Assembly (NCBI GenBank): GCA_016186365.1
Contig: JACPLT010000001.1
Span: forward strand, 13,231-77,230
From: Candidatus Pacearchaeota archaeon
GTDB taxonomy: Archaea > Nanobdellota > Nanobdellia > Pacearchaeales > GW2011-AR1
DNA length: 64,000 nucleotides
Reading direction: 5' to 3'
Shown here: piece after piece, positions 31,301-54,754 of the stretch
Numbering within the stretch: position 1 is the first letter of the stretch
How the letters are laid out: the number at the start of each line of letters is the position of its first letter
Notes under the pieces: model-generated
Told to the model about the DNA's origin: nothing
The model's database searches: none
The model's input: only the letters and a program-made list of their open reading frames with translations
Position numbers and translations under genes: made by a program

Positions 31301-32374
31301 TTATTTTTAGATTTTGGGATTGTTGCCACTTGCTATGAAAAAGAGCTAAAAACCGGAAGCACTTGTTATAGAATCAGCATTTTAGGAGTAAGAAATTTTG
31401 AGAGATTTAGCGAGATAGGTTTTATAGAAAATCAGAAAAATAAAAGAATTATGGATTATGTTAATTCTAGAAAGTGGAATAGGTCTGACGTTATTCCTTT
31501 GTCTGGCGAGCTTTATGAGCTAGCTTCTCAAAGTCAAAGTGTTTATTCAACTAATAAGTCTATAGGAAAAGAGGCGCTAAAGAACATGCTGATTTTGATA
31601 GACAAAGATAAAAGTAGATATAAAGAATATTGGGAATTAGTTGAAGGAGATTTATTTTTTGATTTAGTTAAAGAAGTAAAAATAATTAATGCTGAAAATT
31701 ATGTTTATGATATATCTGTTCCGGCAGGGCAGAATTTTATTGCTGGTTTTGGAGGAGTAATTGCCCATAATAGTGAAGAAGGTGTCAGAAAAATATTTGA
31801 GAGAGCAAGACAGGTAAGTCCATGCATCATATTTTTTGATGAAATTGATTCTCTTGCTTCTAGGAGAGGCGCGGATGCTGGGGGAGGAAGAGTTACTGAG
31901 CAGGTGTTAAATCAGTTGTTAGCTGAAATGGATGGATTGGAAGAGCTGAATAATGTTATTGTAATTGGGGCGACTAATAGGCCGGATATGCTTGACCCCG
32001 CTATATTAAGGCCTGGAAGATTTGACAGAATTTTATTGGTTTCAACTCCTAACAAAGAAGGAAGATTGTCTATACTTAAAATTCACACAAAAAATATGCC
32101 TCTTGCAAAAGATGTAGATTTAGATAAGATATCTGAACTGACTGAAGGTTATGTTGGTGCGGATTTGGAGAGCTTGGCTAGAGAGGCGGCTATGCTTGCT
32201 TTAAGAGAGAATAAAGATGCAAAAGAGGTTACAAAGAAAAATTTTGAGGATGCCATGAAAAAAGTTAGACCTTCTGTAAGCAAGCAGCTGATTGATAAAT
32301 ATAAAAAGATAGAGGAAGATTATCTTAAGAATGCCAAGGCGGCGATTGAGAAAGAGGCGCAGTATTTAGGATAA
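28328..32374 (+). CDS. cdc48: CDC48/VCP-like AAA+ ATPase (N domain + D1 + D2) carrying a 496-aa intein in D2 and a roughly 90-aa insertion in D1
   Basis: Two [15 protein letters not shown] Walker A motifs and DEID Walker B motifs. N-domain RGDIVSIKG. Second-region-of-homology motifs [16 protein letters not shown] present twice. Confidence 0.9.
30284..31771 (+). mobile_element. intein (496 aa) with LAGLIDADG homing-endonuclease domain inside cdc48 D2
   Basis: Host sequence WVGK|SLPYNEEL...GGVIAHN|SEEGVRKIF. Removal restores the conserved WVGxSE..REIF. Block B TDYHSL, LAGLIDADG blocks [11 protein letters not shown] and [12 protein letters not shown], and terminal HN followed by Ser(+1). Confidence 0.8.
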
Positions 32375-40834: not shown

Positions 40835-41851
40835 ATGGGATTGCAGATAGGTGAAATTGTTGTAAGAAAGCCGATAACTTTTAAGGAGCTGGCTGGAAAG
40901 ATAGTTGCAATTGATGCTTTTAATGCGATTTATCAGTTTTTAACTAGTATAAGACAGCCGGATGGAACTCCTTTGATGGATAAGAATAAAGAAATTACCT
41001 CTCATTTATCTGGATTATTCTATAGAAATGTTAATCTGCTGGCTGATGGAATTCTTCCTGTTTATGTTTTTGACGGCAAACCTCCTGAATTGAAGAGAGA
41101 GGAGATTGAAAAGAGGCAGGAAGCAAAAGAAGAAGCAAGAGAAAGATATGAAGAGGCGAAAGAGAAAGAAGATGTTGAGGGAATGAAGAAGTATTCTTCT
41201 CAATTTGTAAAAATTAATGATAAAATTATTAGTGAGAGCAAGGAATTGCTTCTGGCTATGGGGATTCCTGTGGTTCAGGCGAGCGGAGAGGGGGAGGCAG
41301 AGGCAGCTTATCTTGCCCGAATAGGGAAGGCGTATGCTTCTGCATCACAAGATTATGATTCTCTTCTTTATGGAGTTCCTAAACTTATTAGAAATTTGAC
41401 TTTGGCAAGAAAAAGGAAAACTATTTCTGGATATGTTGAAGTTGCTCCAGAAATAATTGATATTGAATATTTATTGAACCAGCTGCAGATTAATAGGGAT
41501 CAGCTGATTTGTTTGGGAATATTGGTTGGAACAGATTATAATCCTGGTGGAGTTAGAGGTATAGGGCAGAAAAGAGCGTTGGATATAGTAAGGAAATATG
41601 TTTATCCTGTCAAGATATTTGATTTTGTTAAAGATAATCCTAAATATTCCATTAACTTTGATTGGCAGGAAATTTATAAAGTGTTTCATGAGTATAAATC
41701 TGAGGATATTGAGCTGAAGTTTGGGAGAGTTGATGAGAATAAGGTTAGAGAGATATTGTTGAAACATGATTTTTCAGCTGATAGAATTGATAATCAGCTG
41801 GAAAAGTTGAGAGAGATTAGGGAGAGAAAGAAACAGAGGACGTTGTTTTAA
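40835..41851 (+). CDS. fen: flap endonuclease 1
   Basis: MGLQIGEIV...GKIVAIDAFNAIYQFL...LPVYVFDGKPPELK and a C-terminal H3TH region. Confidence 0.9.
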   Translation: MGLQIGEIVVRKPITFKELAGKIVAIDAFNAIYQFLTSIRQPDGTPLMDKNKEITSHLSGLFYRNVNLLADGILPVYVFDGKPPELKREEIEKRQEAKEEARERYEEAKEKEDVEGMKKYSSQFVKINDKIISESKELLLAMGIPVVQASGEGEAEAAYLARIGKAYASASQDYDSLLYGVPKLIRNLTLARKRKTISGYVEVAPEIIDIEYLLNQLQINRDQLICLGILVGTDYNPGGVRGIGQKRALDIVRKYVYPVKIFDFVKDNPKYSINFDWQEIYKVFHEYKSEDIELKFGRVDENKVREILLKHDFSADRIDNQLEKLREIRERKKQRTLF

Positions 41852-41852
41852 A

Positions 41853-43034
41853 ATGAGTATAGAAGCTGTTCCAAAAAAAAGAGTTGAAAAAGATGTTATA
41901 GAAGCGTTTAAATTACTTGCGGAAAGTGAAGGAATAAAAATAAATAATTCTGATTTTCCTGTTGTGGAAGTTAGAGAAGGAAAATACTCTTATTATGATC
42001 TTACGAAACGTTCTATTTTTATCCGCCCTCTTGACATAGGCAGTGGGACAACTTATTTTGAGGAGGCAGGGCATGCTTTAAGAGATGTTGTGCAGAGGAG
42101 AAAGGGAGTAGATTATTTAAAGCAAGATCGGAAAGTTCATGAATTTTTAGGGAGAGCAGCAGAGAGTATTGGAAGGGATTTATCTTCTGGAACAGAAATG
42201 ATGGGATTATTTTCTGAAAAACCTCGAGATATGGATGATCCTAGAATTAAGAAAAAACTTTTGAATAGATTGCGAGGGATTAGAGATGTTAAAGATCTTT
42301 TAAGAGAAAGACGAGATAGACTTGCTAAGGGAAGAAGTTATGCGCTTAATCTGTTAAAAGAAAATTATCTTAATTTGCAAGACGCTTATAAAAGTTTTAG
42401 AAGTGGAAAAATAAATGAGCAAGAGTTCATAAGCGAAATGCATAGATTAGAACAAGAGAGTAGGAAAGGAGCCAGAAAATTGAGCGGTAATGAGGAGATG
42501 AGTGTTTCTCCATTTGATGAGAATGAAATAAAAGGGTATCTCTCTTTATATGAATATTTGGGAGAAGTTTTAGGTATAACTAGAAACGCTAAAGATGAAG
42601 AAAAGAGAAAAATTATTGATGGGGCAATGAAATTTGTAGACGAATTGTATAACCCTAAAAAAATAAAATTTGATTTGGATGATCCTCGAGTTTTGGATGT
42701 AGAGTTTCAAATTGGGGAAATTCATGATAGCCATGAGGTTCATAGAAAACCTTATCTTTATGCTCAACAATATGCTCCTTCTGAATTAAAAGGAGCTTAT
42801 TCGCTTTCTGATTCAGAGATAAGAGACAGATTTTTTCATAAAAGAAAGTCAGGATTAGAAAAAGCAGTAGAAACCTTATTTTTCGTTCTTTTTCCTCTTG
42901 TTTTTGTCTATCTTTTAAAATTGAGATTAACGGGGTTTGTTTCTGGAGTTAAACTGGTTAAACTTGATTTATTTCTATTAATTTTTCTTATAATAATCAG
43001 TATTTTATACCTGAAATTTAGAACAAGAAAATAA
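41853..43034 (+). CDS. hypothetical protein with C-terminal double TM anchor (393 aa)
   Basis: Start 2 nt after the fen stop, so probably co-transcribed. Charged coiled-coil middle; two C-terminal hydrophobic helices. Confidence 0.45.
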   Translation: MSIEAVPKKRVEKDVIEAFKLLAESEGIKINNSDFPVVEVREGKYSYYDLTKRSIFIRPLDIGSGTTYFEEAGHALRDVVQRRKGVDYLKQDRKVHEFLGRAAESIGRDLSSGTEMMGLFSEKPRDMDDPRIKKKLLNRLRGIRDVKDLLRERRDRLAKGRSYALNLLKENYLNLQDAYKSFRSGKINEQEFISEMHRLEQESRKGARKLSGNEEMSVSPFDENEIKGYLSLYEYLGEVLGITRNAKDEEKRKIIDGAMKFVDELYNPKKIKFDLDDPRVLDVEFQIGEIHDSHEVHRKPYLYAQQYAPSELKGAYSLSDSEIRDRFFHKRKSGLEKAVETLFFVLFPLVFVYLLKLRLTGFVSGVKLVKLDLFLLIFLIIISILYLKFRTRK

Positions 43035-43165: not shown

Positions 43166-43777
43166 ATGAAAAAGAGCATAATATTGTTTATCTTGATAAT
43201 ATTTTTATCGGCGTTTGTATATGCTGAAGAACAACCAGGAGATGCAGGAAAGATTGCAGGAAAAACTGCGGTATCCGCAGTTTTAGGAACGAATGCTTTT
43301 CTTGAGAGAGATATCGTTGTTCCTGAAAATTTGCAGTTGGTTGCTAGGGTTTTATTTGGGTTGAAGGAAAATACGGATATCGCTTTTTCTGAATTTGTTG
43401 TTCTTTGTGCTGTTTGGATAATGCTTTTTATTATAATAATTAAGATTATGGTTTTTATGCCATTTTTGAACAAAGGAATACAAAAATTTGCAGGAGCATT
43501 AATTATAACTTGTTTAGCTTCTATTGCTGGAGGATTGCTTGCTTTAGTTGCTTTATTATTAGATTTGTCAAGTTTATTTGGGATATTTAATAAATATTCT
43601 GTTGTAACCTTGGTAATTGGAATAATTCTATCAATTGTTATTGTCCTTTTTGCGAGTCTTGCTACAAACAAAATTATAACTTCTTCTGATCGTGCACGAG
43701 CAGCTACATCGGGTTTACAAGCAGGGGCTACAGCAGGAATGCTTCAGCAACAGGGAAAAACAATGACTGGAAGATGA
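43166..43777 (+). CDS. secreted 4-TM membrane protein, paralog family member P1
   Basis: Signal peptide MKKSIILFILIIFLSAFVYA, then 4 TM. Distant member of the P3/P4/P5 family. Confidence 0.45.
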   Translation: MKKSIILFILIIFLSAFVYAEEQPGDAGKIAGKTAVSAVLGTNAFLERDIVVPENLQLVARVLFGLKENTDIAFSEFVVLCAVWIMLFIIIIKIMVFMPFLNKGIQKFAGALIITCLASIAGGLLALVALLLDLSSLFGIFNKYSVVTLVIGIILSIVIVLFASLATNKIITSSDRARAATSGLQAGATAGMLQQQGKTMTGR

Positions 43778-44482
43778 TTATTCAGCTATCTCTTGCCCTT
43801 CTTTGAATTTATCTGAAAATTCGATTATATTTCCCTCTTCTTGTTCTGCTTTTCTTTTCTTTTTTTCTTCATTTTTTTTATTTATATATGTTGAAAGAAT
43901 ATCTAAGAAATAATAAAATGCTAAGATGATTAATACAGAAGCGATTATTAACAAAGTTCTTGCCCAGGCCGCTTCTTTGCTAAAGATGAATACTCCTACT
44001 GCGTTTATTATTATTTTAAAAACTTTTAGATGAGCTAGGGTGAGTGCAAATAGCAATCCGATAATATAAGCTGCCCAGCCTTTTAGAAAGTCAAGAGCTG
44101 CGATCATTTTAGAAGATTTTAGGAAAACTATCAGCCAGAGAATAATAACAAATAGTAGTGTCATAGATAAAGCGTAATCCATGCCGAACAAAATCCTGAA
44201 AACAATGCTTATTCTTGATAAGAAAGAATCAATCTTGGAAATAATGCTGTTTTCCAGCAGGATTTTTCTCCATTCTTTTCCTAAGTAGTCCCATTTTGTT
44301 TGTGTTATATTTTTTAGCTCTTCTGTTGACGAGGGGACTCCTTCTGGGAATCCTCTTTCGTTTAATTCGCCATAAGCTGATGTTGGATTAGGGTTAGCTC
44401 CGTCTTGTGCTAGGGTTAGGGTTGAAACTAGGAAACTTGCTATTAATATACTCAAGATAAATATTAATTTATATTTTAACAT
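43778..44482 (-). CDS. secreted 4-TM membrane protein, family member P2
   Basis: Signal peptide, 4 TM, charged C-tail. Stop codon abuts the P1 stop. Confidence 0.45.
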   Translation of the reverse strand: MLKYKLIFILSILIASFLVSTLTLAQDGANPNPTSAYGELNERGFPEGVPSSTEELKNITQTKWDYLGKEWRKILLENSIISKIDSFLSRISIVFRILFGMDYALSMTLLFVIILWLIVFLKSSKMIAALDFLKGWAAYIIGLLFALTLAHLKVFKIIINAVGVFIFSKEAAWARTLLIIASVLIILAFYYFLDILSTYINKKNEEKKKRKAEQEEGNIIEFSDKFKEGQEIAE

Positions 44483-44921
44483 TTTCTATTAGTTTTTTAA
44501 GTTTAGGAAAAAATGAACTAAGAAACATTATAAATTTTTCAGCTTCTTCTTTTATATAACTTTTTCCATAATATTTTACTCCATTTCTGAATTGCCTTAG
44601 CTCATTCATCATGTTTATTTCATAATCTGGAAATTTAAGCTCATTTAAGTATGAAACTTCTGCTTCGTGAGCATAATTCCCAGAGGCAGAATATCCATCT
44701 AATAACATTTTTGCCCTTATTAATTCAATTAAAATATCATAAATTGATTCTATAATAAAATTGGCATTGTTATCTGTTATTTCTATAGTATTAACAATTT
44801 GTTTTAGAAAAATATCTCTTTTTTCAGAGTTTTCTGCTAATGAATTTGCCTTGTTCTTATCAGGATACATCTGTCTTACAATGCCCTCTTTTATGTATTC
44901 TTTAAATTCTCTTAAGCTCAT
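44469..44921 (-). CDS. HEPN-like protein (partner of nucleotidyltransferase)
   Basis: Alpha-helical, 150 aa. Shares ELRQFRNGVKYYGKSY with KRNMLCYGK of 50457..50855. 4-nt overlap with the upstream NT gene. Confidence 0.4.
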   Translation of the reverse strand: MSLREFKEYIKEGIVRQMYPDKNKANSLAENSEKRDIFLKQIVNTIEITDNNANFIIESIYDILIELIRAKMLLDGYSASGNYAHEAEVSYLNELKFPDYEINMMNELRQFRNGVKYYGKSYIKEEAEKFIMFLSSFFPKLKKLIENVKI

Positions 44922-45439
44922 AATTGAACTACTCCCTTTAATGTTATTCCATTTAAAATACTGCTCTTTAAATTTGTTTCTATACTTTTCAAATCTGGAT
45001 AAAAATTAATATTAATTTTTCTTTCGAGCAGTTTTTCAAAACTTTCTAGTTCCAAATTTTTTTCTTTATACCCTATTATGGCTATATCTATATCTGACCT
45101 TTCTATGTCCTCTCCTCTAGAATAGCTTCCGAATAAAATTATTGTTGATAAGGGAAATTTATCATATAAGTATTCAATTAGTCCTGATAGATACATTCTC
45201 TTTAAATTACTTACTCTTTTAAAATTTTTAAAATTTGAGTTATCTAAATTTGCTTTTACCTCGTATAGAAACTTTTTATCTATAGTTATCATATTTTCCT
45301 TTTCTAGCTGTTTTAACGAGCCAGATATAGATGGGGGGGAGATTTTCAATATCCTTGAAATTTCTCTTACATGGAATCTTCTTGTTGGAAAATCAAATAA
45401 TAACTCCTGGATTTTTTCTTTCGTGTCTGTGTTCTTCAT
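44918..45439 (-). CDS. minimal nucleotidyltransferase (MNT) with N-terminal wHTH
   Basis: IILFGSYSRGEDIERSDIDIAIIG (GS...D.D NTase signature). N-terminal HTH RFHVREISRILKISPPSISGSLKQLEKENMI. Confidence 0.7.
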   Translation of the reverse strand: MKNTDTKEKIQELLFDFPTRRFHVREISRILKISPPSISGSLKQLEKENMITIDKKFLYEVKANLDNSNFKNFKRVSNLKRMYLSGLIEYLYDKFPLSTIILFGSYSRGEDIERSDIDIAIIGYKEKNLELESFEKLLERKININFYPDLKSIETNLKSSILNGITLKGVVQL

Positions 45440-45584
45440 TTTATATTTGTTTATTTAAAATAACAATTGTTAATTTAATATTTTATATGTTAATTTAAGA
45501 TAACAATAGTTTATAAAGATTTCTGTTTGAAGAAAGTTGCCGATTAGCGGGAGTTGAAAGGGTAAGAGAAGGGTTGATATCTTA

Positions 45585-46445
45585 TTATTCCATTTTTCCA
45601 CTGGCTATTTTTTCTAACCTTTTTGCGGTTTCAATCAATTTTTTCGTTTCTTCAGTTTCGCCTGTTACTTCTGCTAGCACATTCGCTCTTTTTCTTAGCA
45701 TTGCAGCGTCTGCTAAAGCTTCTTCTTTTGACATAACTTTTGAACTTTCTACATATCCTGCTATCCTTGTGTTGAAAAGGTATTGTCTAATTGTAGCATT
45801 AAAAGAAGCATAAATAATCAAGACTCCAAATATTGGGATATAAATTGGAAGAGCAAATTTCCAAACATTATCTAACTTTCCTGGAAACCACATTAATACA
45901 CTTATCCTATACCCTAGATATAACACAAATGCCCAAATTATTATTTTTTGTAATAATATTTTTGCAGGATTGGGGTTTTTGGTTAATTCCCAAGTTATCC
46001 CAAATATGATTATAAATGGTATAATTGATGTTAAAGTTATTCCCATTGCCCCATAGCTGACTAATGCCGCATATAATTCTTCTGGAGCAATATAAATAAT
46101 TGATAAGTAGGATATTATTATTGCTAATAGCCACCTAATCGCAGTTTTTCCTTTTCCTGTGCCTTGTCCTACTATCGGCACATATTCAAGGACACTCACT
46201 ATAATTAATAAAAGCATACCAAAAACAAGGAATTTAGTTAAAGCCAAATTCCAAATTGATTCCCCTGTAATTGTTTTTCCAAAAACTTTTTCAAATAGAG
46301 TGGGTCCCGATATTTTGGTAAATGCGTTATTTATCGCATCTGCTATGCTAGATGCAGGTATTGCAGCAACAAAATTAGCAACGAACGAAATCATAATTAA
46401 ACCTAGAAACATTAATGCAAATATTCTCACACTTTCTTTTTTCAT
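45585..46445 (-). CDS. secreted 4-TM membrane protein, family member P3
   Basis: Signal peptide. Conserved SIIPFIIIFGI and IIIWAFVLYLGY segments shared with P4/P5. Coiled C-tail. Confidence 0.5.
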   Translation of the reverse strand: MKKESVRIFALMFLGLIMISFVANFVAAIPASSIADAINNAFTKISGPTLFEKVFGKTITGESIWNLALTKFLVFGMLLLIIVSVLEYVPIVGQGTGKGKTAIRWLLAIIISYLSIIYIAPEELYAALVSYGAMGITLTSIIPFIIIFGITWELTKNPNPAKILLQKIIIWAFVLYLGYRISVLMWFPGKLDNVWKFALPIYIPIFGVLIIYASFNATIRQYLFNTRIAGYVESSKVMSKEEALADAAMLRKRANVLAEVTGETEETKKLIETAKRLEKIASGKME

Positions 46446-46547
46446 TTTGTAATGAAAATAATTCTCTATTTAAATCTTTCTCCCTAATTTAGTGTTACTA
46501 AAAAATTATAACAGAGAAGAAAAAACTAATTTTTCTTTTGTGTTATG

Positions 46548-46715
46548 TCAAGAACCCTACACTAAAAGTGTAGGGCGTTTCGGGTTCTTGAGCATGTCAG
46601 AAACTTATGTTTCTGATCACTCTCAGAAATTAAAAATTTCTGAAGTGCTCAAAAATTGCGTTTATTTACTCACGAACTAAAGTAAGGAGGTTGTATAAAC
46701 CAATTTTTGACATGT
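46548..46715. repeat. hairpin-rich interspersed repeat copy (family with 52540..52700 and 60975..61030)
   Basis: Nested hairpin caagaaccc-tacac-taaaa-gtgta-ggg...gggttcttg, then tcagaaac-ttat-gtttctga. Shares GTGCTCA(A/G)AAA and TTTTTGACATG with the other copies. Confidence 0.45.
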
Positions 46716-46954
46716 TAAGGTTACCCATATTATATTTTGTGTAACTTTGAGATTACCTATATTTGTGAGTCTTTTGGCAGTTATGACTTTGAAACGCTAA
46801 ACTAGCAATTAAAACATTAAGAAAAGAACTTGAGAATTAATTATTTAACATCAATAATAGTGGGCTTTTATTGAGTTACAAATAGATTTATTTTTAATTC
46901 AGAAAAATAATTGCCTTTAGCAATAATTACTTTTTTATTTTTTATCTGTAGAAT

Positions 46955-47110
46955 GTTACATTCATGTCATATTTGTTACATTCATGTCATATTTGTTACA
47001 TTCATGTCATATTTGTTACATTCATGTCATATTTGTTACATTCATGTCATATTTGTTACATTCATGTCATATTTGTTTTTGTTACATTCATGTCATATTT
47101 GTTACATTCA
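46955..47110 (+). repeat. 20-bp tandem direct repeat gttacattcatgtcatattt x about 7.5 (six perfect copies, a 6-bp gttttt insertion, 1.5 more)
   Basis: Read directly. No spacers between copies. Confidence 0.9.
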
Positions 47111-47169
47111 AACTCCTAAAAGTTTTCCTTAAATTAAGGAAAATAGTATATAAAAATTTCCTATTTTAA

Positions 47170-47451
47170 AGGAAAACTTTATTTTATTGGAAGAATGTTC
47201 AGCAGGAAGAAGTAGATTTTGTTGTTAAAGAAAATGGCAAAATAAAAGAATTAATTCAAGTGTGCAAAGATATAAGCGATATTAATACTAAGCAAAGAGA
47301 AATTCGTGCATTGTTAAAAGCGAGCAAGGATTTGGAATGCAAGAATCTTTCTATAATAACTGAAAATTATGAATCTGAAGAAGAAGCTGAATGGTTTGAT
47401 TTAAAAGGAAAAATTAAGTTTGTTCCCTTGTGGAAATGGCTCTTGACATGA
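47170..47451 (+). pseudogene. 3' fragment of an AAA-type ATPase gene (DUF4143-like C-terminus), truncated at its 5' side
   Basis: Open frame from 47170 with no start until 47260. Encodes LFYWKNVQQEEVDFVVKENGKIKELIQVCKDISDINTKQREIRALLKA..., which resembles the ...YWR..EVDF.....IEVK C-terminal segment of archaeal DUF4143 ATPases. The remainder of the gene is absent. Confidence 0.45.
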
Positions 47452-47649
47452 TTTTCTATGTATATAGTAAAAGACAAAAAATTTTTAACCAACTTTTTTC
47501 TTTTCTTATCTATTAAAGGACAGAAAATGGTTAATTATTAATATCCTTTAATATAATATAGCGGTAACAAAATATCCCCGTTTTATTAACTTTTAAGTAA
47601 TTACTATATTTTCCGAAATATTTATAAAGACGGGGAAAATTAATTATTT

Positions 47650-48516
47650 ATGAAAAATAAAAAGCTGGTGATTTTGCCGATATTATTTATCGCGATTTTA
47701 GCTTTGTCTTTTGTTGTTAGTGCTGCTGAAAATGCAATTGTAAAAATGGGGGCTGATTTTGTTGAGAGTGTTTATAGTACATTGGAACCTTATCTTAAAG
47801 TTTTAGTTGGATCTACCGCTTCAGATCTTGTTCCTGGTTTTAGTGTGTTTGTAGCCAAAATCTTATTATTAATTATTTTGATAGCTATTATTTATATTAC
47901 ATTATCTAAATCTATGGCTGGATTTTTTGCTGATAAAATGTGGGTATTATGGATTATTTCGATTATCTTATCTGTGATTGGAGTAAGATTTTTAACTCCT
48001 GAATGGATTAATGCAATACTTTTGCCCACAAATACTTTTGCTATTGCAATAACTGCCGGTCTTCCTTTTATATTGTACTTTATGATTGTTAAAGGTTTTA
48101 ATGCGTCTGTTGCTAGAAGAACTGCTTGGATATTTTTTGCAGTAATATTTTTGATTTTATATGCTTCAAGAACAGGAGTTTCGGGAATTACAGCAGAAGC
48201 AAAAAAAGCATATGTTATCTATCCAATAACTGCGGGATTAGCATTACTTATGGTAGTATTAGACGGAACAATAAGAAGTTGGTGGTTTAAGGTTCAAAGA
48301 GAGAGTGCTTTAGCGGGAGGTAAATCCGCGACACTATTAAGTCTTGAAACTGCTCGTACAAATATAGGTACTAATTATTCCGGTAATCCTGCGGGATATT
48401 CTGGAATATACCCTGCTGCGCAAGGTGGAGGATTTGGTCAAATAGGTACTGATGCCTTTTTAGCAGATTCTGCGTATTTGGAAAAACAGATTAGAAAAGT
48501 TATAAAAGCAAAGTAA
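47650..48516 (+). CDS. secreted 4-TM membrane protein, family member P4
   Basis: Signal peptide. AGLPFILYFMIV and RRTAWIFFAVIF motifs. Gly/Tyr-rich C-tail. Confidence 0.55.
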   Translation: MKNKKLVILPILFIAILALSFVVSAAENAIVKMGADFVESVYSTLEPYLKVLVGSTASDLVPGFSVFVAKILLLIILIAIIYITLSKSMAGFFADKMWVLWIISIILSVIGVRFLTPEWINAILLPTNTFAIAITAGLPFILYFMIVKGFNASVARRTAWIFFAVIFLILYASRTGVSGITAEAKKAYVIYPITAGLALLMVVLDGTIRSWWFKVQRESALAGGKSATLLSLETARTNIGTNYSGNPAGYSGIYPAAQGGGFGQIGTDAFLADSAYLEKQIRKVIKAK

Positions 48517-48681
48517 GTCTTTTAGAGTCCTTTGCTTTATTTGGTTCTATCTTTTCTTAATTTTTAAATATATTAGCCCTTTTTTTAATTCTTACTCCTT
48601 TTTTGTATTTTTCATTCGGGAAATAAAAATTTCCCTCAAAATTTCCCAAATATTTATAAACCTAATATTTCTATTCTAATA

Positions 48682-49476
48682 ATGAAAAAGAGAAATAAAA
48701 ATCTGATGATTTTTTTTGGGATGTTTATTATTATGCTGTTTTTATTTATGAACTTTGCCTCTGCTCAAGTTTATGATGATTTGAGAGCGAGTTCAGAACA
48801 AATCATCCAGTGGATTAATGATATTTTTTCTCCGTTCTTTCATGCTCTTTTAGGTGCAGACTCTTTGGATAAATACTTCTTTGAAAGAATATTAATTCTT
48901 ATTCTGGTTTATGTTGTTGTTTGGAGTGTTCTTAAAAAAGTGGAAATTTTCAAGGATCATAAAGGAGTTGTTTTTGTTGTTTCTTTGATAGTTGCTCTTC
49001 TTGGAGCTAGGTATATGTCTGAAATCGATATACTTGAAGGGATACTACTACCTTACGGAACCTTGGCAATAGCTATTTCTGTCGCTCTGCCTTTTTTAAT
49101 ATATTTCTTTTTTGTTAATCTTTCTATTCCTAGTAAGGGGGGAAGAAGAATTGCCTGGATATTATTTGCAGCTGTTTTTTTTGGATTATGGATTTCTAGA
49201 GGCGTTGATTCAATTGGAAACATTGGAAATTGGATATATGGTATTGGGGTTGTAGCTGTTTTGTTGTGTCTTATTTTTGATGATAAGATACAAGAATATT
49301 TTGGCATGTTTGAGGCTACTAGGGCTAGAAGAATCAGATTTGACCAACAAATTGCAGATAGAGAGGCGCAGTTAGTTCATTATCGAGGAATTCAATCGCC
49401 TTCTCAGAGTGTAAAGGACACTATAAAGAGATATGAAGATGAGATTAAAGAATTATATAGGCAGAGAAGAAAATAA
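48682..49476 (+). CDS. secreted 4-TM membrane protein, family member P5
   Basis: Signal peptide. VALPFLIYFFFV and RRIAWILFAAVFF motifs. Arg-rich coiled C-tail. Confidence 0.55.
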   Translation: MKKRNKNLMIFFGMFIIMLFLFMNFASAQVYDDLRASSEQIIQWINDIFSPFFHALLGADSLDKYFFERILILILVYVVVWSVLKKVEIFKDHKGVVFVVSLIVALLGARYMSEIDILEGILLPYGTLAIAISVALPFLIYFFFVNLSIPSKGGRRIAWILFAAVFFGLWISRGVDSIGNIGNWIYGIGVVAVLLCLIFDDKIQEYFGMFEATRARRIRFDQQIADREAQLVHYRGIQSPSQSVKDTIKRYEDEIKELYRQRRK

Positions 49477-49528
49477 ATTATTCAAAACATAATTTATAAC
49501 CCTTATTTTTATCAAAATTAACTCATAT

Positions 49529-49795
49529 TTATCTACTTTTCTGATAACCCACTATTTTCCTGCTTTTACCTTCGCCCTGATAAATTGGAACTTCCTCAGA
49601 AGATTGGGAGATTTTTGAGCTGGACTTTGGCTTGTTCATGATAAAAACTATTCCCAATATGACGAGGCAGATGCCTGCAATCATCACGTAGGCAGGCGTA
49701 ATCGCTGCTGGAATAGGCAATCTGGAGGTGTTAAAGCTTAATACTATTATAATCAATCCTAATATTGATAAAATATATCCGAGTAATTTTGACAT
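49529..49795 (-). CDS. small 2-TM membrane protein (88 aa)
   Basis: Two hydrophobic helices plus a basic tail. Confidence 0.35.
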   Translation of the reverse strand: MSKLLGYILSILGLIIIVLSFNTSRLPIPAAITPAYVMIAGICLVILGIVFIMNKPKSSSKISQSSEEVPIYQGEGKSRKIVGYQKSR

Positions 49796-49854
49796 TTTTT
49801 TGTTCCTCTTTTGTTTATTTGTTGATTATATTAATAACCATGTGTTTTTAAACT

Positions 49855-50466
49855 TTATTCTTTGTATAGAAATACTCTGTTAATTTTAACTGATATTTTA
49901 AAATTATTAAATACTTTTAAGAATAAGCTAAGATTATCTATGTTGATTATTATGGCATTTTTGCCTATTCTTTTTCCCATATATTTTTCCACTAATCCAG
50001 AATAATGAGTTTTATGCTGGTTATATCCAAAAAGCTTTTTATTCAACATAACTCTTTTGGACTCTGGTTTTATGCTTCCCCATTCAAGTATCGCTTTATT
50101 TTCCCCGCTTTCAAGAACAGGAGAATAATGCTGGTAAAGAATAATTGAGCTTCCTAACATGCTGTCTTTTAATTTCCAATCTTTTAATTTCCCTGCAATA
50201 ATATTTATTTCATTTTTGACTCCCAGCGGCTTCCAATAATTTTTAAATTTTGTTGAATTATAAAATTTATCAAGAATTATATTCGTTTCTTTATCAATTG
50301 TTTTTTCTTCCTCAAAAACATCAATAAAAATATCAACATCGCTTTCTTTTCCCGCTTCTTCTCTTGCAGCGCTTCCAAATAATATTATCGACTTAATTTT
50401 ATCTTTATTGCTAAAATTTTGGATAAAAAAAGAAACAAAATCTATGGCATAACTTATTAATTCCAT
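49855..50466 (-). CDS. nucleotidyltransferase-domain protein (MNT-like)
   Basis: IILFGSAAREEAGKESDVDIFIDVF. Confidence 0.65.
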   Translation of the reverse strand: MELISYAIDFVSFFIQNFSNKDKIKSIILFGSAAREEAGKESDVDIFIDVFEEEKTIDKETNIILDKFYNSTKFKNYWKPLGVKNEINIIAGKLKDWKLKDSMLGSSIILYQHYSPVLESGENKAILEWGSIKPESKRVMLNKKLFGYNQHKTHYSGLVEKYMGKRIGKNAIIINIDNLSLFLKVFNNFKISVKINRVFLYKE

Positions 50467-50855
50467 TTTAACCCCTCTCTTTCGAATATTTCTTTTAGTT
50501 TATTAAAATCCTCTAGAACGGATAATATTATTTCAACTGGCTGTAATTTTCCATAGCACAGCATATTCCTTTTTGTCTCTATGTCTGCCAGTAATTTAAT
50601 TATCTCCAGTTTATTATTAAATTCAAATGGCAATCTCTCATTAGCTCTTCTTTCAGAGGAGAACCAATCATGCTTAATTGCTGTTCCTGGATTTATTAAA
50701 TTGTTTTTATGCAAAAAAACTTCTAGCATCTCTACAGAAGCTACTGAAATATTAAAACTTAAATTCCTTTGTCTATTTTGAATGCCTTTCTCTATACTTT
50801 CTTTTATTACTTCTAAGCTTTCATTTATATTCCTTAAGTGATCTTCTATTTTCAT
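50457..50855 (-). CDS. HEPN-like protein (paralog of 44469..44921)
   Basis: Alpha-helical with KRNMLCYGK motif. 10-nt overlap with the downstream NT gene. Confidence 0.4.
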   Translation of the reverse strand: MKIEDHLRNINESLEVIKESIEKGIQNRQRNLSFNISVASVEMLEVFLHKNNLINPGTAIKHDWFSSERRANERLPFEFNNKLEIIKLLADIETKRNMLCYGKLQPVEIILSVLEDFNKLKEIFEREGLKWN

Positions 50856-50889
50856 AAATATCTCAAGTTGCAGGCATATTTAAACTTTT

Positions 50890-50950
50890 GCTACAATCGT
50901 AACTATACTTTAGTTACAATCGTAAACATTAAATTGCTACAATCGTAACT
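50890..50950. promoter_or_regulatory. three direct repeats G(C/T)TACAATCGTAA(C/A) spaced 23-24 bp in a divergent promoter region
   Basis: gctacaatcgtaac (50890), gttacaatcgtaaa (50914), gctacaatcgtaac (50937). Lie between the divergently transcribed 50457..50855 and 51018..51308. Confidence 0.45.
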
Positions 50951-51017
50951 AGAGACTTTTTGTGCAATAATTTAAATAGTTTTTTATTTTATTAGTGCTA
51001 AGGGAAGGAGATTTGAA

Positions 51018-51308
51018 ATGAAAAAAGATAATACTCATCAAGAGCAAATAGAAAGATGGGCAGAATATGTAAAGAATAATGAAAATTGGAGGCAAATTCA
51101 TACTAAATTTATTGACATGTCAAAAATTGGTTTATGCAAGCTCCTTGTTTTAACTCGTGAGAAAATAAAATCAATTTTTGAGCATGCTCAAGAACCAGTA
51201 TGGCGTACACGCCATACACTTCAGTGTATGGTTCTTGACAGCCAATTTGAGATTGCAAGGAAATTTTATAAAGATCTTGAGAAAACAGCAAAAGGAAGGG
51301 AGATATAG
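51018..51308 (+). CDS. hypothetical protein (96 aa)
   Basis: ORF preceded by the aagggaaggag SD-like sequence. Contains a diverged copy of the interspersed hairpin element. Confidence 0.4.
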   Translation: MKKDNTHQEQIERWAEYVKNNENWRQIHTKFIDMSKIGLCKLLVLTREKIKSIFEHAQEPVWRTRHTLQCMVLDSQFEIARKFYKDLEKTAKGREI

Positions 51309-51511
51309 AGAACTGCGTAGCTTGTATGACATTTATCCAGCAGTTCTCTATCTGTTTAACTGCACTAAATTGTCATCTAACTAATGCAGTTATCCATATT
51401 AAAAAAATTGAGGGAGGAAAAATTAAAAAATGACAAGTTATGATGTTATTGAAGTGTCAGAGATTTTCGCTGAAGCTCTAATCCCTGAACACTTCCAAAA
51501 CAAGGAGCAAA

Positions 51512-52279
51512 ATGACAAGTTATGATGTTATTGGAAGTATAGCAATACTGAAGTTTCCGAGGGGAATGAAGAAAAGCGAGAAGAAGAAAACAGCTTTGGA
51601 ATTGCTGGAAAAGCACAAAAATCTAAAAACTGTTGTTGAAAAGTCAGAAAAGGTAAGGGGAAGATTGAGGACGATAAAAACATTATTTCTTGCAGGAGAG
51701 AAAACAAAAGAGAGTATTCATAATGAATCTGGATGCAGGTTTAAATTAAATATTGAAAAGTGCTATTTTTCTCCTAGATTGAGCAATGAAAGAATAGAAG
51801 TTGCAAAAAAAATAGCAGAAGGGAGCAAGGTTTTGGTTTTATTTGCAGGGGTTTCTCCGTTTTCTATTGTTATTGGAAAAATTGCCAAGCCAGAAAAAAT
51901 TGTTTCTGTTGAGCTTGGAAGAGAGTGCTGCAGATATGGCAAAGAAAATGCCAGACTGAATAAACTTGAGAGAGTGGTGGAGATTGTTCAGGGAGATGTC
52001 AAGAAATTAAAAAAATTAATTAAAAAAAGAAAGTTTGATGTGATAGTTATGCCTCGTCCGCAACTTAAGGAAACTTTTCTTGCTTATATCTGGGAATTCT
52101 GCAAGAAAGATACAGAAATATTTTATTACGGATTTGGGAAGGATATTGAGGAAATAGTTTCAGAAATAGAGAAAGAGGCAGGGAAAGCTAAAAAGAAAAT
52201 CAGGATTATTGAAAAAAGAAATGCAGGAGATATTGCTCCGTATAGATATAGGTTTTTAGTTAGGTTTAAGTTAGTTTAA
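51512..52279 (+). CDS. tRNA methyltransferase of the Trm5/Taw2 (Met-10+) family
   Basis: DVIGSIAIL...NLKTVV N-terminus. SAM-binding VLVLFAGVSPFSIV. ELGRECCRYGKENARLN and IVQGDVKK as in Trm5/TYW2. Confidence 0.65.
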   Translation: MTSYDVIGSIAILKFPRGMKKSEKKKTALELLEKHKNLKTVVEKSEKVRGRLRTIKTLFLAGEKTKESIHNESGCRFKLNIEKCYFSPRLSNERIEVAKKIAEGSKVLVLFAGVSPFSIVIGKIAKPEKIVSVELGRECCRYGKENARLNKLERVVEIVQGDVKKLKKLIKKRKFDVIVMPRPQLKETFLAYIWEFCKKDTEIFYYGFGKDIEEIVSEIEKEAGKAKKKIRIIEKRNAGDIAPYRYRFLVRFKLV

Positions 52280-52567
52280 GCCGTAATCTGCATATTGGCT
52301 TTCTACTTCGGAATCTAAATCTTCTTTGGAATCATGATATAACCTACTTCTTTCTGGTTCATATAAAGATATGGGAAGAGAATCTACATCTTCATATAAT
52401 CTGGAATCCTGATAATTCTGTGCTGGTTCTGCTGTCATATTTTTCTTATTTTTAGCGGGTTTTTAAATATTATTATTGAACCTTTAGGTGTGCGAGACCA
52501 GGACATATGTCCTGAACCTATACACTATTGAACCTTTAGAAGGCTTCAAGAACTTATGTTCTTGACA

Positions 52568-52645
52568 GTGCTCAGAAACTGAGAAAATTCCAGAAGAATT
52601 TTCGAGGTGCTCAGAAACTGAGAAAATTCCAGAAGAATTTTCGAG
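52568..52645 (+). repeat. 39-bp tandem duplication (gtgctcagaaactgagaaaattccagaagaattttcgag x2, third partial copy)
   Basis: Two identical adjacent copies, 52568-52606 and 52607-52645. Confidence 0.85.
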
Positions 52646-52793: not shown

Positions 52794-53064
52794 TCAATCT
52801 TAATAGCAGTTAAACCTTTAGAAAAGGTTTCCAAACTATCAGTTAAAGTCGCTTTTCGACTTTAACTGCTGTTGGAGCCTCTCCGCAGGTACCCAACCGT
52901 CGTATTTCGCTATGCTCAATACAACTTGCAACCATAAAGGTTGCCTTTCTCCAACTGCTCAAATTCTTTTATCAATCTTAATCGCAGTTAAACCTTTAGA
53001 AAAGGTTTCCAAACTATCAGTTAAAGTCGCTTTTCGACTTTAACTGCTGTTGGAGCCTCTCCGC
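52794..53064. repeat. two copies of a roughly 93-bp direct repeat (52794..52886 and 52972..53064, 1 mismatch) each containing a 12-bp-stem hairpin
   Basis: tcaatcttaat(a/c)gcagttaaacctttagaaaaggtttccaaactatcagttaaagtcgcttttcgactttaactgctgttggagcctctccgc. Copy B overlaps the last 14 codons of the HerA-like gene. Confidence 0.85.
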
Positions 53065-54754
53065 CGTGCCAGGTGAACTTGGGGCGGACTCGCATGGGAT
53101 AAATTCTTTCTGAATTGTCGTCGAGAATAATTGCTGAGCCCTTTAAACTCGGAAGTTCATCCATATATTTGTTTATGCTTGAATAAACATAAGACTGCAT
53201 TATTTCATTTAGTGCCTGAATATCCGGAAGGGCAGTAACTCTATGAGACAAGATTATATCTGCTTGTGTTATTGCATCTTTTGCAAGAGAGCCGGGCTGT
53301 TGTGTGGCCATAACTAGGCTTATTCCTGGCTGCCTTCCCTCTCTTAATAACTGGATTAAAGCATCTGTTGCAGGAGTTTTTCCATCATTGGGCAGGAATT
53401 CGTGAACTTCATCAATAAAAATCCAGACAAGAGGCATCTCCCTCTTTTGCTTGAATGAAAGATAGTCAATCCCATGCTGAACTGCCTGAACTTCTTCTGT
53501 TTTTCTTGACAGCATTCTTTCCTTGAAAAGCTTTTTTGATATCAAACTTATAACTAGAGCGCGAACATTAAATGCCCCTGTCGAGGAATACATGCTCAAA
53601 TCAAGAACTGAAGTTTCTCCTGCTTTTATCAGTTTGGAAATTTCTGTTTCCTGCTCTGAAAACACTTTCCAGGAATCTGCTGCTTCAAATAAACTTGAAG
53701 CAGAGTTTCTTGCATCAATTGTTGAGCTGTGTTCAGAATCTATTTTTTTAATTATGTCTTTTATTGAAAAATTTAGATTTTCTTCTTTCAGCGTGTTTAT
53801 CACTTTTTCTATCAAAACAGCAACTGGCTCGGTTATAGAGAGATTAAAAGTTGTTATCCAGTCTTCTGATTCCAATTCTTTTGGAGAAATTGAAAACTTT
53901 TCATCAACAGGAATCCCTCTTTTTTCATAATCTTCAAAATATCCCAATGGAATAAAAATTTTTACAGGCGTCTTTTTAGGCTTAAGTTTCCATTCTTCCA
54001 GCAAATCTTTTTCTTTTTCATTTTCGAATTTCATTGTCCAGAATACTCCCATTGTATCCAGTATAAGCCCTGCAATGTTTTCTCTTTCCTCTTGAGGCAG
54101 AGTTGCGAGTTCTTCTGCTATTACTCCCAGAGAATAAGACTTTCCCGAATTATGTGAAATAATTCCATTAGCAATAAATGAATGATTTTTATCTACAGAT
54201 AAATCATAAACTTTTTTTATCCCCTCTATAATTTTTATATTTTTTATCCTAACAGGAAATAAATCTGTAAAATTATTATTAACTGATATTAATTTATCTC
54301 CTTTATTTAATTTTTCTGCTTCCATCCATAGAAGAGATAACAATTTTTCTCCAGAAGTTATCAGCAGGGGGTGCTCTTTTGTCAGCTGCAGTTTTCTGCC
54401 GTCTTCTAATTCTATTTCTATAAGATTTTCACTTATAGGGTATTCTAATAACTCTGCATTTTCCCATTCAAACTTTTTTTCATCTTTGTTGAAAGAGAGA
54501 ATTTTGTTTTCTTTGTTAAAATCTTTTATCGGTAAATATCCTTTATCGGTAAAGATAGATGTTCCTTCAGTCAGACATCCTCTTTTTCCTGAAACCAGGA
54601 CTACATGGCTTCTTGCGATGTCCATATAAATCGGATTTGACAGCGAAGTATACTGCCCCATTTTTACGAAACCTTTTCCTAGATAAATCAACCCTCTTTT
54701 TTCGAACCTCTTTTTGTCTGAAGAATCTCTTCCTATGATTATATCATATGGCAT
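53021..54754 (-). CDS. HerA/DUF87-family P-loop ATPase with a mini-intein inserted in the Walker A motif
   Basis: VLVSGKRG|C...HN|SGKSY; splicing gives GKRGSGKS. Downstream WIFIDEVHEF (Walker B) and QQPGSLAKDAITQADIILSHRV, typical of HerA/DUF87. Confidence 0.7.
   Translation of the reverse strand: MPYDIIIGRDSSDKKRFEKRGLIYLGKGFVKMGQYTSLSNPIYMDIARSHVVLVSGKRGCLTEGTSIFTDKGYLPIKDFNKENKILSFNKDEKKFEWENAELLEYPISENLIEIELEDGRKLQLTKEHPLLITSGEKLLSLLWMEAEKLNKGDKLISVNNNFTDLFPVRIKNIKIIEGIKKVYDLSVDKNHSFIANGIISHNSGKSYSLGVIAEELATLPQEERENIAGLILDTMGVFWTMKFENEKEKDLLEEWKLKPKKTPVKIFIPLGYFEDYEKRGIPVDEKFSISPKELESEDWITTFNLSITEPVAVLIEKVINTLKEENLNFSIKDIIKKIDSEHSSTIDARNSASSLFEAADSWKVFSEQETEISKLIKAGETSVLDLSMYSSTGAFNVRALVISLISKKLFKERMLSRKTEEVQAVQHGIDYLSFKQKREMPLVWIFIDEVHEFLPNDGKTPATDALIQLLREGRQPGISLVMATQQPGSLAKDAITQADIILSHRVTALPDIQALNEIMQSYVYSSINKYMDELPSLKGSAIILDDNSERIYPMRVRPKFTWHGGEAPTAVKVEKRL
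54149..54577 (-). other. mini-intein (143 aa, no endonuclease domain) in the P-loop of the HerA-like ATPase
   Basis: Begins CLTEGTSIF (block A), TKEHPLL (block B), ends NGIISHN followed by Ser(+1). Too short for a homing-endonuclease domain. Confidence 0.7.

Follow-up and report, generated by a model that had tools for sequence, protein, structure and literature searches.

We analysed a 64,000-nt stretch of a contig from a Candidatus Pacearchaeota (DPANN) genome (JACPLT010000001.1, positions 13,231–77,230; contig GC content ~30%), hereafter the window, and in it five membrane-protein genes, P1 to P5, that lie between the genes for the flap endonuclease FEN1 and the tRNA methyltransferase Trm5. 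P2, P3, P4 and P5 correspond to genes A, B, C and D of a conserved backbone, which also includes a gene for a small membrane protein, E. The A–E backbone is probably an ancient, vertically inherited cluster specific to DPANN archaea of the Pacearchaeota/Woesearchaeota type, in which A–E are subunits of one hetero-oligomeric envelope complex. A first-pass annotation had described the same DNA as a variable island of five paralogous membrane proteins interleaved with two pairs of nucleotidyltransferase (NT) and HEPN-like genes, and had proposed a membrane-associated accessory system. Translation of the window recovered all nine open reading frames (ORFs) named there, P1–P5 and the two gene pairs (44469–45439 and 49855–50855), in their places (Table 1); E had been overlooked. 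P4 is identical to NCBI protein HYW76_00365.

Loci of relatives were taken from four contigs with P4 homologues and from a scan of GTDB species genomes, which gave 20 loci, all from Pacearchaeota, Woesearchaeota or 'Nanoarchaeota' metagenome-assembled genomes. The 24 loci fetched represent 23 distinct ones, L004 being a duplicate of L003. The four P4-homologue contigs share the order FEN1, a 220–257-aa gene (−), a 265–285-aa gene (−), the P4 homologue (+), a gene of ~255 aa (+), often an 85-aa gene (−), and Trm5. When every ORF of all loci was compared with the window proteins, the common pattern was PolB, FEN1, A, B, C, D, E, Trm5 and a DUF87/HerA-type ATPase. A and B are transcribed away from C and D, and E follows D on the opposite strand. 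Positional orthologues of A were present in 16 loci and orthologues of E in 17, nearly always immediately 3′ of D, and FEN1 orthologues of 53–62% identity adjoin the cluster in 12 loci. Median identity to the window proteins was 56% for FEN1 and 50% for Trm5, and 28%, 27%, 36%, 32% and 38% for A, B, C, D and E, respectively. The description as a variable island thus applies to inserted material and to the length between FEN1 and Trm5, which varies, but not to the membrane-protein backbone, which keeps the same gene order in ~20 diverged relatives. As a vertically inherited, syntenic core cluster in these deeply diverged genomes, the membrane proteins do not behave as accessory genes.

In some Woesearchaeota the cluster is also found intact outside its usual neighbourhood. 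In L005, L010 and L015, genes C, D, E, B, a P1-like gene and A lie together elsewhere; in L010 they are flanked by SRP54, FtsY and GINS at one side and by NDK and ribosomal protein S3Ae at the other. Since the genes are kept together in these three loci, the A–E set relocates as one block and is not tied to FEN1, Trm5 or the ATPase. A neighbour-joining tree of 64 B/C/D proteins resolved one clade each for C and D and two for B, matching gene position; because the clades track position, B, C and D go back to old duplications whose copies have all been retained. Additional copies occur as well: L017 has four long-form genes together with A and a P1-like gene, and a P1 homologue sits in the same convergent position in L018. 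As a separate observation, L008 carries a DDE transposase gene (9195–10085) after C–D–E, in the place where A and B are expected, so the cluster can be broken by mobile elements.

The relationship among the five proteins was readily detected by BLASTP for P3–P5 only. P4 and P5 matched each other with an E-value of 2.5e-22 (29% identity across 218 aa), and P3 matched both with E ~1e-4; P3-type orthologues of other genomes matched P4/P5 at 1e-20 to 1e-25. P1 and P2 had been described as more distant, in agreement with our results: their BLASTP similarity to the other paralogues was below significance, and the link came from profiles. A hidden Markov model iterated from P2 retrieved P1 at E 1.2e-6, alongside P1-like proteins of 190–225 aa. 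With hhalign, the P2 family matched the P3–5 family (92.4%, E 5e-7) and the P1-like set (97.5%, E 6e-12), and the P1-like set matched the P3–5 family (95.8%, E 8e-9). As hydrophobic proteins can inflate profile–profile scores, controls were run; reversed alignments scored below 1% and the unrelated family E, with its two transmembrane (TM) segments, at most 5%. The A/P1-like and B/C/D alignments were in register over an external helix with a P...(L/F)G motif, TM1 and TM2, and up to TM4 for P2. By these comparisons P1–P5 form one superfamily, in which B/C/D (P3–P5) are the long form and A (P2) together with P1 the short one; the homology of P1 and P2 to B/C/D is confined to the N-terminal module. 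The claim of five paralogues therefore stands for P3, P4 and P5 by BLASTP, and for P1 and P2 by profile–profile comparison only and over that module.

P3–P5 share whole-length similarity with the B/C/D family, including its LLG, GLPF, RRxAWIFF and DGT blocks. The family profile collected 1,843 representatives at 50% identity, of which 745 had E-values below 1e-30, and nearly all of the best 150 of the 1,843 are 240–340 aa long. The A family has 25 database homologues, none of which has a Pfam domain. Two motifs highlighted in the first-pass annotation, (S/A)(I/L)(I/L)PF and R(R)xAWI(F/L)FA, proved to be the most conserved blocks of the B/C/D family, with P139, F140 and W160 invariant or nearly so.

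Both the B/C/D and the A families have an N-terminal basic and then hydrophobic segment with a near-invariant Ala at its end, resembling a Sec signal peptide, which bears out the description of these proteins as secreted or polytopic membrane proteins with signal peptides. The topology that had been proposed, with four TM helices and an external domain of 60–100 aa, needed revision. Hydropathy, an AlphaFold2 (AF2) model and the distribution of Lys and Arg (K+R) indicated five TM helices after the signal peptide in P3–P5, which have an external segment of ~35–40 aa. A (P2) and P1 have about three TM segments followed by a K/E-rich tail. The AF2 model of P4, built from 147 sequences (mean pLDDT, the predicted local distance difference test, 88.5), contains a helix at residues 29–53, then membrane helices at 63–88, 97–113, 130–148, 153–175 and 190–212, the last of which continues far, and an additional helix at 267–286. 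The external helix of the B/C/D family is acidic (4.0 D+E vs 1.6 K+R per sequence). K+R per sequence was 0.2–0.3 in the loops predicted to lie outside, 1.8 in loop 3 and 12.8 in the tail; this charge distribution fits the modelled orientation, in which the N-terminus would be outside and the C-terminus inside. In E, two TM segments are accompanied by a conserved EVPIYxG..(I/V)VGYR motif at the C-terminus. Conserved residues in the B/C/D family are few (P47, G54, R113, P126, P139, F140, R156, W160, Y191, D205 and G206) and lie mostly at both membrane faces, with no hint of a substrate site.

We did not find a described family to which these proteins belong. P1–P5, and among them P3–P5 in NCBIfam, had no family match in Pfam or NCBIfam, and when 147 B/C/D members were scanned singly against Pfam, no transporter family recurred consistently; the commonest matches were GvpG and DUF2070 (11 each), all below threshold. 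SHOCT (PF09851) matched 2 of the 147 members (best E 5.8e-4), and a C-terminal G(L/I)(I/T)xxE(Y/H)...K motif is visible in the alignment. The B/C/D family had no match in PHROGs, and no chain matched in profile searches of PDB with full-length and TM-core alignments. Foldseek searches of PDB (with two AF2 models) and BFVD gave no fold match (best E 0.5–0.8, TM-score below 0.25): we judged the best matches, which suggested a G-protein-coupled receptor or DtpA fold, to be noise, and dropped a MotA/ExbB-like reading because the MotA chain 6ysl_C was also at noise level (E 1.0, TM-score 0.15). IMG/VR viral contigs contained no relative of the membrane proteins. In PADLOC-DB 2.0, P1, P4 and P5 had no match, P3 reached 0.032 over 20 residues, and P2 matched weakly (5.8e-5) the two-TM part of the 'CARF, 2 TMs' model through its TM and tail region only. 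These searches therefore gave nothing that would identify a known transporter or enzyme (Pfam, NCBIfam, PDB profiles, Foldseek) or, in the case of PADLOC, PHROGs, BFVD folds and IMG/VR contigs, an origin in defence, exclusion or viruses. The earlier remark that the family could not be placed agrees with this. The B/C/D family has no relative in the searched libraries, which does not imply a new mechanism. The first-pass annotation had named two outcomes that would tell against its proposal, synteny of the island in relatives and assignment of the family to a housekeeping transporter or permease class; we observed the former for the backbone, and the profile searches assigned no such class.

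The gene pairs between the membrane-protein genes each contain a minimal nucleotidyltransferase. Both NT domains scored above the Pfam gathering cut-offs: NT1 matched NTP_transf_2 (PF01909; 41.0 bits, cut-off 21), Polbeta (PF18765; 39.8 bits) and HTH_5 (25.3 bits), and NT2 matched Polbeta (41.3 bits, cut-off 26.9) and NTP_transf_2 (37.7 bits, cut-off 21). The hG[GS]x9-13Dh[DE] active-site motif, in the form GSx10DxD, is present in both (LFGSYSRGEDIERSDIDIA in NT1 and LFGSAAREEAGKESDVDIF in NT2). The designation of their partners as HEPN-like fared less well. Neither partner matched a HEPN family in Pfam at E up to 1, in NCBIfam or in PADLOC; PDB sequence and profile searches with partner 1 matched designed helical proteins only, and a PDB search with partner 2 gave no match. 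Partner 1 has 323 homologues, with a Pfam domain in none of the 120 listed, and the family has invariant H85, R109, R112-N113 and Y117-Y118-G119. In this R112-N-x3-Y117-Y-G segment, Rx4Y takes the place of the HEPN Rx4-6H motif, with tyrosine for histidine. Partner 2 has a similar KRN(M/L)LCYGK segment, again with tyrosine for the HEPN histidine, and its hhalign score against the partner-1 family (0.4%) was not significant.

Partner and NT genes overlap by 4 nt in pair 1 and by 10 nt in pair 2, with the gene order of pair 2 reversed such that the partner is upstream of NT2; the pairing also occurs in L007, L017 and L025–L027. Directly upstream of each module are short repeats, direct or palindromic (TTGTTA..TAACAA and GCTACAATCGTAAC, in three copies each), which are candidate operators for autoregulation. 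The modules thus resemble MntA–HepT, the MNT–HEPN or type VII toxin–antitoxin system, in having a minimal nucleotidyltransferase with GSx10DxD, a small overlapping partner gene and operator-like repeats upstream. They differ from it in several respects: neither partner matches a HEPN model, and both have Rx4Y; NT1 bears a winged helix at its N-terminus; in pair 2 the gene order is reversed, and NT2 is extended by ~90 aa at its C-terminus; and both NTs fall below the NCBIfam MntA equivalog cut-off (NF047752; 35.8 and 29.9 bits vs 60 bits). Pair 1 occupies the same place in L007 (identities 61% and 41%), with the same 14-nt overlap onto gene A, and pair 2 the same place in L017 (66% for NT2, 67% for partner 2). 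At 61–67% identity, NT/partner orthologues are as conserved as housekeeping genes, which suggests that the pairs are long-term residents rather than fast-turnover toxin modules. A pair was found in 2 of ~20 cluster loci and was absent from the remaining ~18, and the neighbour of the three sampled pair-1 homologues (L025–L027) is a tRNA synthetase, DHODH or radical-SAM gene, no membrane paralogue being close to any of them. The pairs are therefore autonomous two-gene modules that reside by chance in the FEN1–Trm5 interval of some lineages, and the link that had been drawn between them and the membrane family does not hold.

Because the ancient paralogues hold their positions, the unrelated small E travels with them and the cluster stays intact after relocation, we infer that A–E belong to one complex. 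Sequence and model support export of A, B, C and D through a Sec-type signal peptide, with a short acidic N-terminal helix outside the cell, three (A, P1) or five (B, C, D) passes through the membrane and a cytoplasmic, basic helical tail. The A–E products would be non-interchangeable subunits of one complex, probably joined by their cytoplasmic helical tails. Some genomes, that of the window included, have an extra A-like copy (P1). Such a complex could be a scaffold or channel between cytoplasm and cell surface, and would belong to the housekeeping rather than the accessory functions of the lineage. A more specific version is quite doubtful at present; in it, A–E would be a hitherto undescribed hetero-oligomeric envelope machine, a hallmark of Woesearchaeales/Pacearchaeales made of the unplaced 5-TM family with its acidic surface helices and cytoplasmic tails, and would give these host-dependent cells an anchor for host contact or a conduit for uptake.

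Several points weigh against the proposal of one envelope complex. Co-assembly and the envelope role are the parts of it that we infer, and it is built on only 24 loci, which were chosen via one conserved peptide pattern. Few polar residues inside the membrane are conserved, and there is therefore no pointer to a specific substrate or pore. In small, rarely rearranged genomes, conserved gene order is by itself weak evidence of functional linkage. Furthermore, between FEN1 and Trm5, L023 has one C-type gene and L024 has two; the C type may work alone, or its partners may be elsewhere in these genomes. The same loci favour an alternative in which the proteins are independent, parallel paralogues, for instance homo-oligomeric channels or carriers of differing specificity, that are adjacent through tandem duplication. 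C-type copies stand alone in L023 and L024, the L024 pair are recent duplicates, the number of membrane paralogues per locus ranges from 1 to 6, and all members have one architecture. We nevertheless consider independent paralogues unlikely, since B, C and D are long-established lineages, each fixed in position, an unrelated small gene, E, accompanies them in 17 loci, and the set remained intact after relocation.

The accessory system suggested by the first-pass annotation, in which the membrane proteins would act with the NT/HEPN-like pairs in defence, exclusion or abortive infection, can draw on the arrangement of the window: NT1, its partner and P2 are closely packed on one strand, overlapping by 4 nt and 14 nt, and this string, with the 14-nt overlap, recurs in L007; NT2 and its partner are at the same spot in L017; and NT1 matches the PADLOC candidate family PDC-M05A (1.3e-15). 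We regard it as very improbable, and synteny has already largely refuted it, as the cluster is core and syntenic rather than patchy. About 18 of 20 membrane-cluster loci have no NT pair, the three sampled homologues of partner 1 and NT1 have no membrane paralogue nearby, P1 and P3–P5 match no defence or phage model and have no viral relative, and P2 has only its weak PADLOC match. Another known arrangement is the Ced DNA-import system of Crenarchaeota, which consists of CedA, CedA1, CedA2 and the HerA/VirB4-like ATPase CedB. A–E likewise comprise several membrane proteins, small and polytopic, and have an ATPase of the HerA/FtsK superfamily encoded not far away, a likeness of gene arrangement and not of sequence or fold. 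A–E might then be the membrane part of a Ced- or type-IV-secretion-like machine that is driven by the DUF87 ATPase (53021–54754) and imports host DNA or nucleotides. This ATPase gene lies 0–3.4 kb past Trm5 in 11 loci, its product is weakly similar to EssC and TraD-type translocases, and nucleotide scavenging is thought likely in these archaea (PMC8204110). Unlike CedB, though, the ATPase is encoded outside the cluster, always with Trm5 in between, and is left behind on relocation: no DUF87 gene was found near the relocated clusters of L005, L010 and L015, or near L008, within flanks of up to 7 kb where the contig allows (L005 starts at a contig end). It also remains beside Trm5 in L023 despite the single membrane paralogue there, and among named families it scores best against HerA repair or anti-phage helicases. 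We regard this reading, too, as very improbable.

Families of this kind have been reported from the same archaea. Fifty-one mostly unannotated families form a module specific to Pacearchaeota and Woesearchaeota, 'Module 98' (Castelle et al, 2021; PMC8204110), and signal peptides and TM helices abound in lineage-specific families of this sort (Meheust et al, 2022; PMC9258230); roles in cell–cell or cell–environment interaction have been suggested for them (PMC8204110; PMC9258230). A–E share the taxonomic range, the absent annotation, and the signal peptides and TM helices of such families, but the papers list anonymous families and describe neither this family nor its paralogue structure and cluster. 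Orphan membrane families are commonplace in DPANN genomes. Pacearchaeota and Woesearchaeota are abundant, uncultured and ultra-small, and how they build their envelope and depend on hosts is little understood; a core-genome cluster of five to six genes for unplaced membrane proteins, conserved across the group, is a concrete target for DPANN cell biology. The analysis names ~1,800 sequence clusters as one family, assigns a topology to it and predicts that the paralogues co-assemble. It also removes a false lead, in that the interval proved to be no defence island, with the nucleotidyltransferase pairs as its passengers.

The FEN1–Trm5 interval is an insertion-prone spot with a conserved backbone. 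FEN1 and Trm5 are 1.0–7.8 kb apart in relatives and 9.7 kb apart in the window, where the cluster has been lengthened from ~3.3 kb to 9.7 kb by a 393-aa ORF, P1, the two NT modules, a decayed ATPase gene and repeats. The 393-aa ORF starts 2 nt past the FEN1 stop and has TM segments at residues 339–357 and 368–386, with no Pfam match and no homologue in the 24 related loci. The spacer between B and C measures 1.2 kb in the window, compared with 33–138 nt in L001–L003, and contains a hairpin-rich repeat and a 20-nt tandem array, as well as the final 90–110 codons of an AAA_14/DUF4143 ATPase gene. By tblastn this remnant matched residues 310–402 of a 406-aa protein with AAA_14 and DUF4143 (L005:5146–6366; E 3.8e-10); upstream of it there is a stop codon in frame, and a start codon for a complete gene is missing. 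Traces of a lost paralogue were also sought in the gap by tblastn, which gave the ATPase remnant alone. Both the pseudogene and the repeats of the first-pass annotation are thus real.

Table 1. Features of the FEN1–Trm5 interval, in window positions.
Feature	Coordinates	Strand	Evidence or content
FEN1 flap endonuclease, left anchor of cluster	40835..41851	+	XPG_N/XPG_I in orthologues
393-aa ORF, window-specific insertion between FEN1 and cluster	41853..43034	+	2 C-terminal TM segments
P1, extra short A-type paralogue	43166..43777	+	Signal peptide + ~3 TM
P2 = putative subunit A	43778..44482	-	Signal peptide, external YLKQEW helix, ~3 TM, K/E-rich tail
NT1 partner, 150 aa, 'HEPN-like' candidate	44469..44921	-	4-nt overlap with NT1, 14-nt overlap with P2
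NT1, winged helix + minimal nucleotidyltransferase, MntA-like	44918..45439	-	Pfam, PADLOC, motif
20-nt repeat x3.2 (TTGTTA..TAACAA), operator-like, adjoining NT1 upstream	45447..45511	undefined	Tandem Repeats Finder
P3 = putative subunit B	45585..46445	-	Signal peptide, 5 TM, helical tail; B clade in neighbour-joining tree
Hairpin-rich repeat, copy 1	46546..46718	+	Similarity to copy 2, fold z-score
20-nt tandem repeat, 7.6 copies	46954..47110	undefined	Tandem Repeats Finder
AAA_14/DUF4143 ATPase gene, 3′ remnant (pseudogene fragment)	47122..47451	+	tblastn
P4 = putative subunit C	47650..48516	+	C clade; AF2 model
P5 = putative subunit D	48682..49476	+	D clade
Putative subunit E, 88-aa 2-TM protein	49529..49795	-	Orthologues in 17 loci
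NT2, minimal nucleotidyltransferase, C-terminal extension ~90 aa	49855..50466	-	Polbeta / NTP_transf_2
NT2 partner, 132 aa, 'HEPN-like' candidate, upstream of NT2	50457..50855	-	KRNxLCYGK motif
23-nt repeat x3 (GCTACAATCGTAAC), operator-like, upstream of partner-2/NT2 operon	50884..50951	undefined	Tandem Repeats Finder
Hairpin-rich repeat, copy 2, within 96-aa ORF 51018-51308	51112..51240	-	Similarity to copy 1
Trm5/TYW2 tRNA methyltransferase, right anchor of cluster	51512..52279	+	PF02475 at 7.8e-38; orthologues in 16 loci

The intergenic regions had no Rfam match at E up to 0.1, and the region contains no tRNA. The hairpin-rich repeat is ~175 nt long and has a fold z-score of −6.0, also with no Rfam match; copy 1 (46546–46718) is 86% identical over 73 nt to 51112–51184 in copy 2, on the opposite strand. 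Hairpins at 46549–46590, 51189–51237 and 52547–52564 share the closing stem CAAGAAC...GTTCTTG, against a chance expectation of 0.02. The first two are in the inverted repeat copies, and their inner stem shows a compensatory change (CCCTACAC/GTGTAGGG vs CCATACAC/GTGTATGG). Copy 2 is in frame inside the 96-aa ORF, which has a weak DUF7476 match, a placement reminiscent of the palindromic elements that invade coding genes. At the edge of the interval, an exact 25-nt duplication (51427–51451 and 51509–51533) places the Trm5 start and first seven codons a second time 82 nt upstream of the real start, and may be the footprint of an insertion or deletion event. Directly downstream of Trm5, a perfect 39-nt tandem duplication (52568–52645) is related to part of the hairpin repeat.

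Elsewhere in the window, the DUF87/HerA-type ATPase (53021–54754, −) contains a mini-intein, its orthologues being 437–875 aa long with or without an intein, and a Cdc48 AAA ATPase (28328–32374, +) contains a LAGLIDADG intein. A 2,406-aa ORF (16663–23883, −) had no Pfam match at E up to 1e-4 and may belong to the giant surface proteins that have been described from this group (PMC8204110). A sensor histidine kinase with Cache, HAMP, HisKA and HATPase domains is encoded at 8968–11037 (−), in what is a very small DPANN genome.

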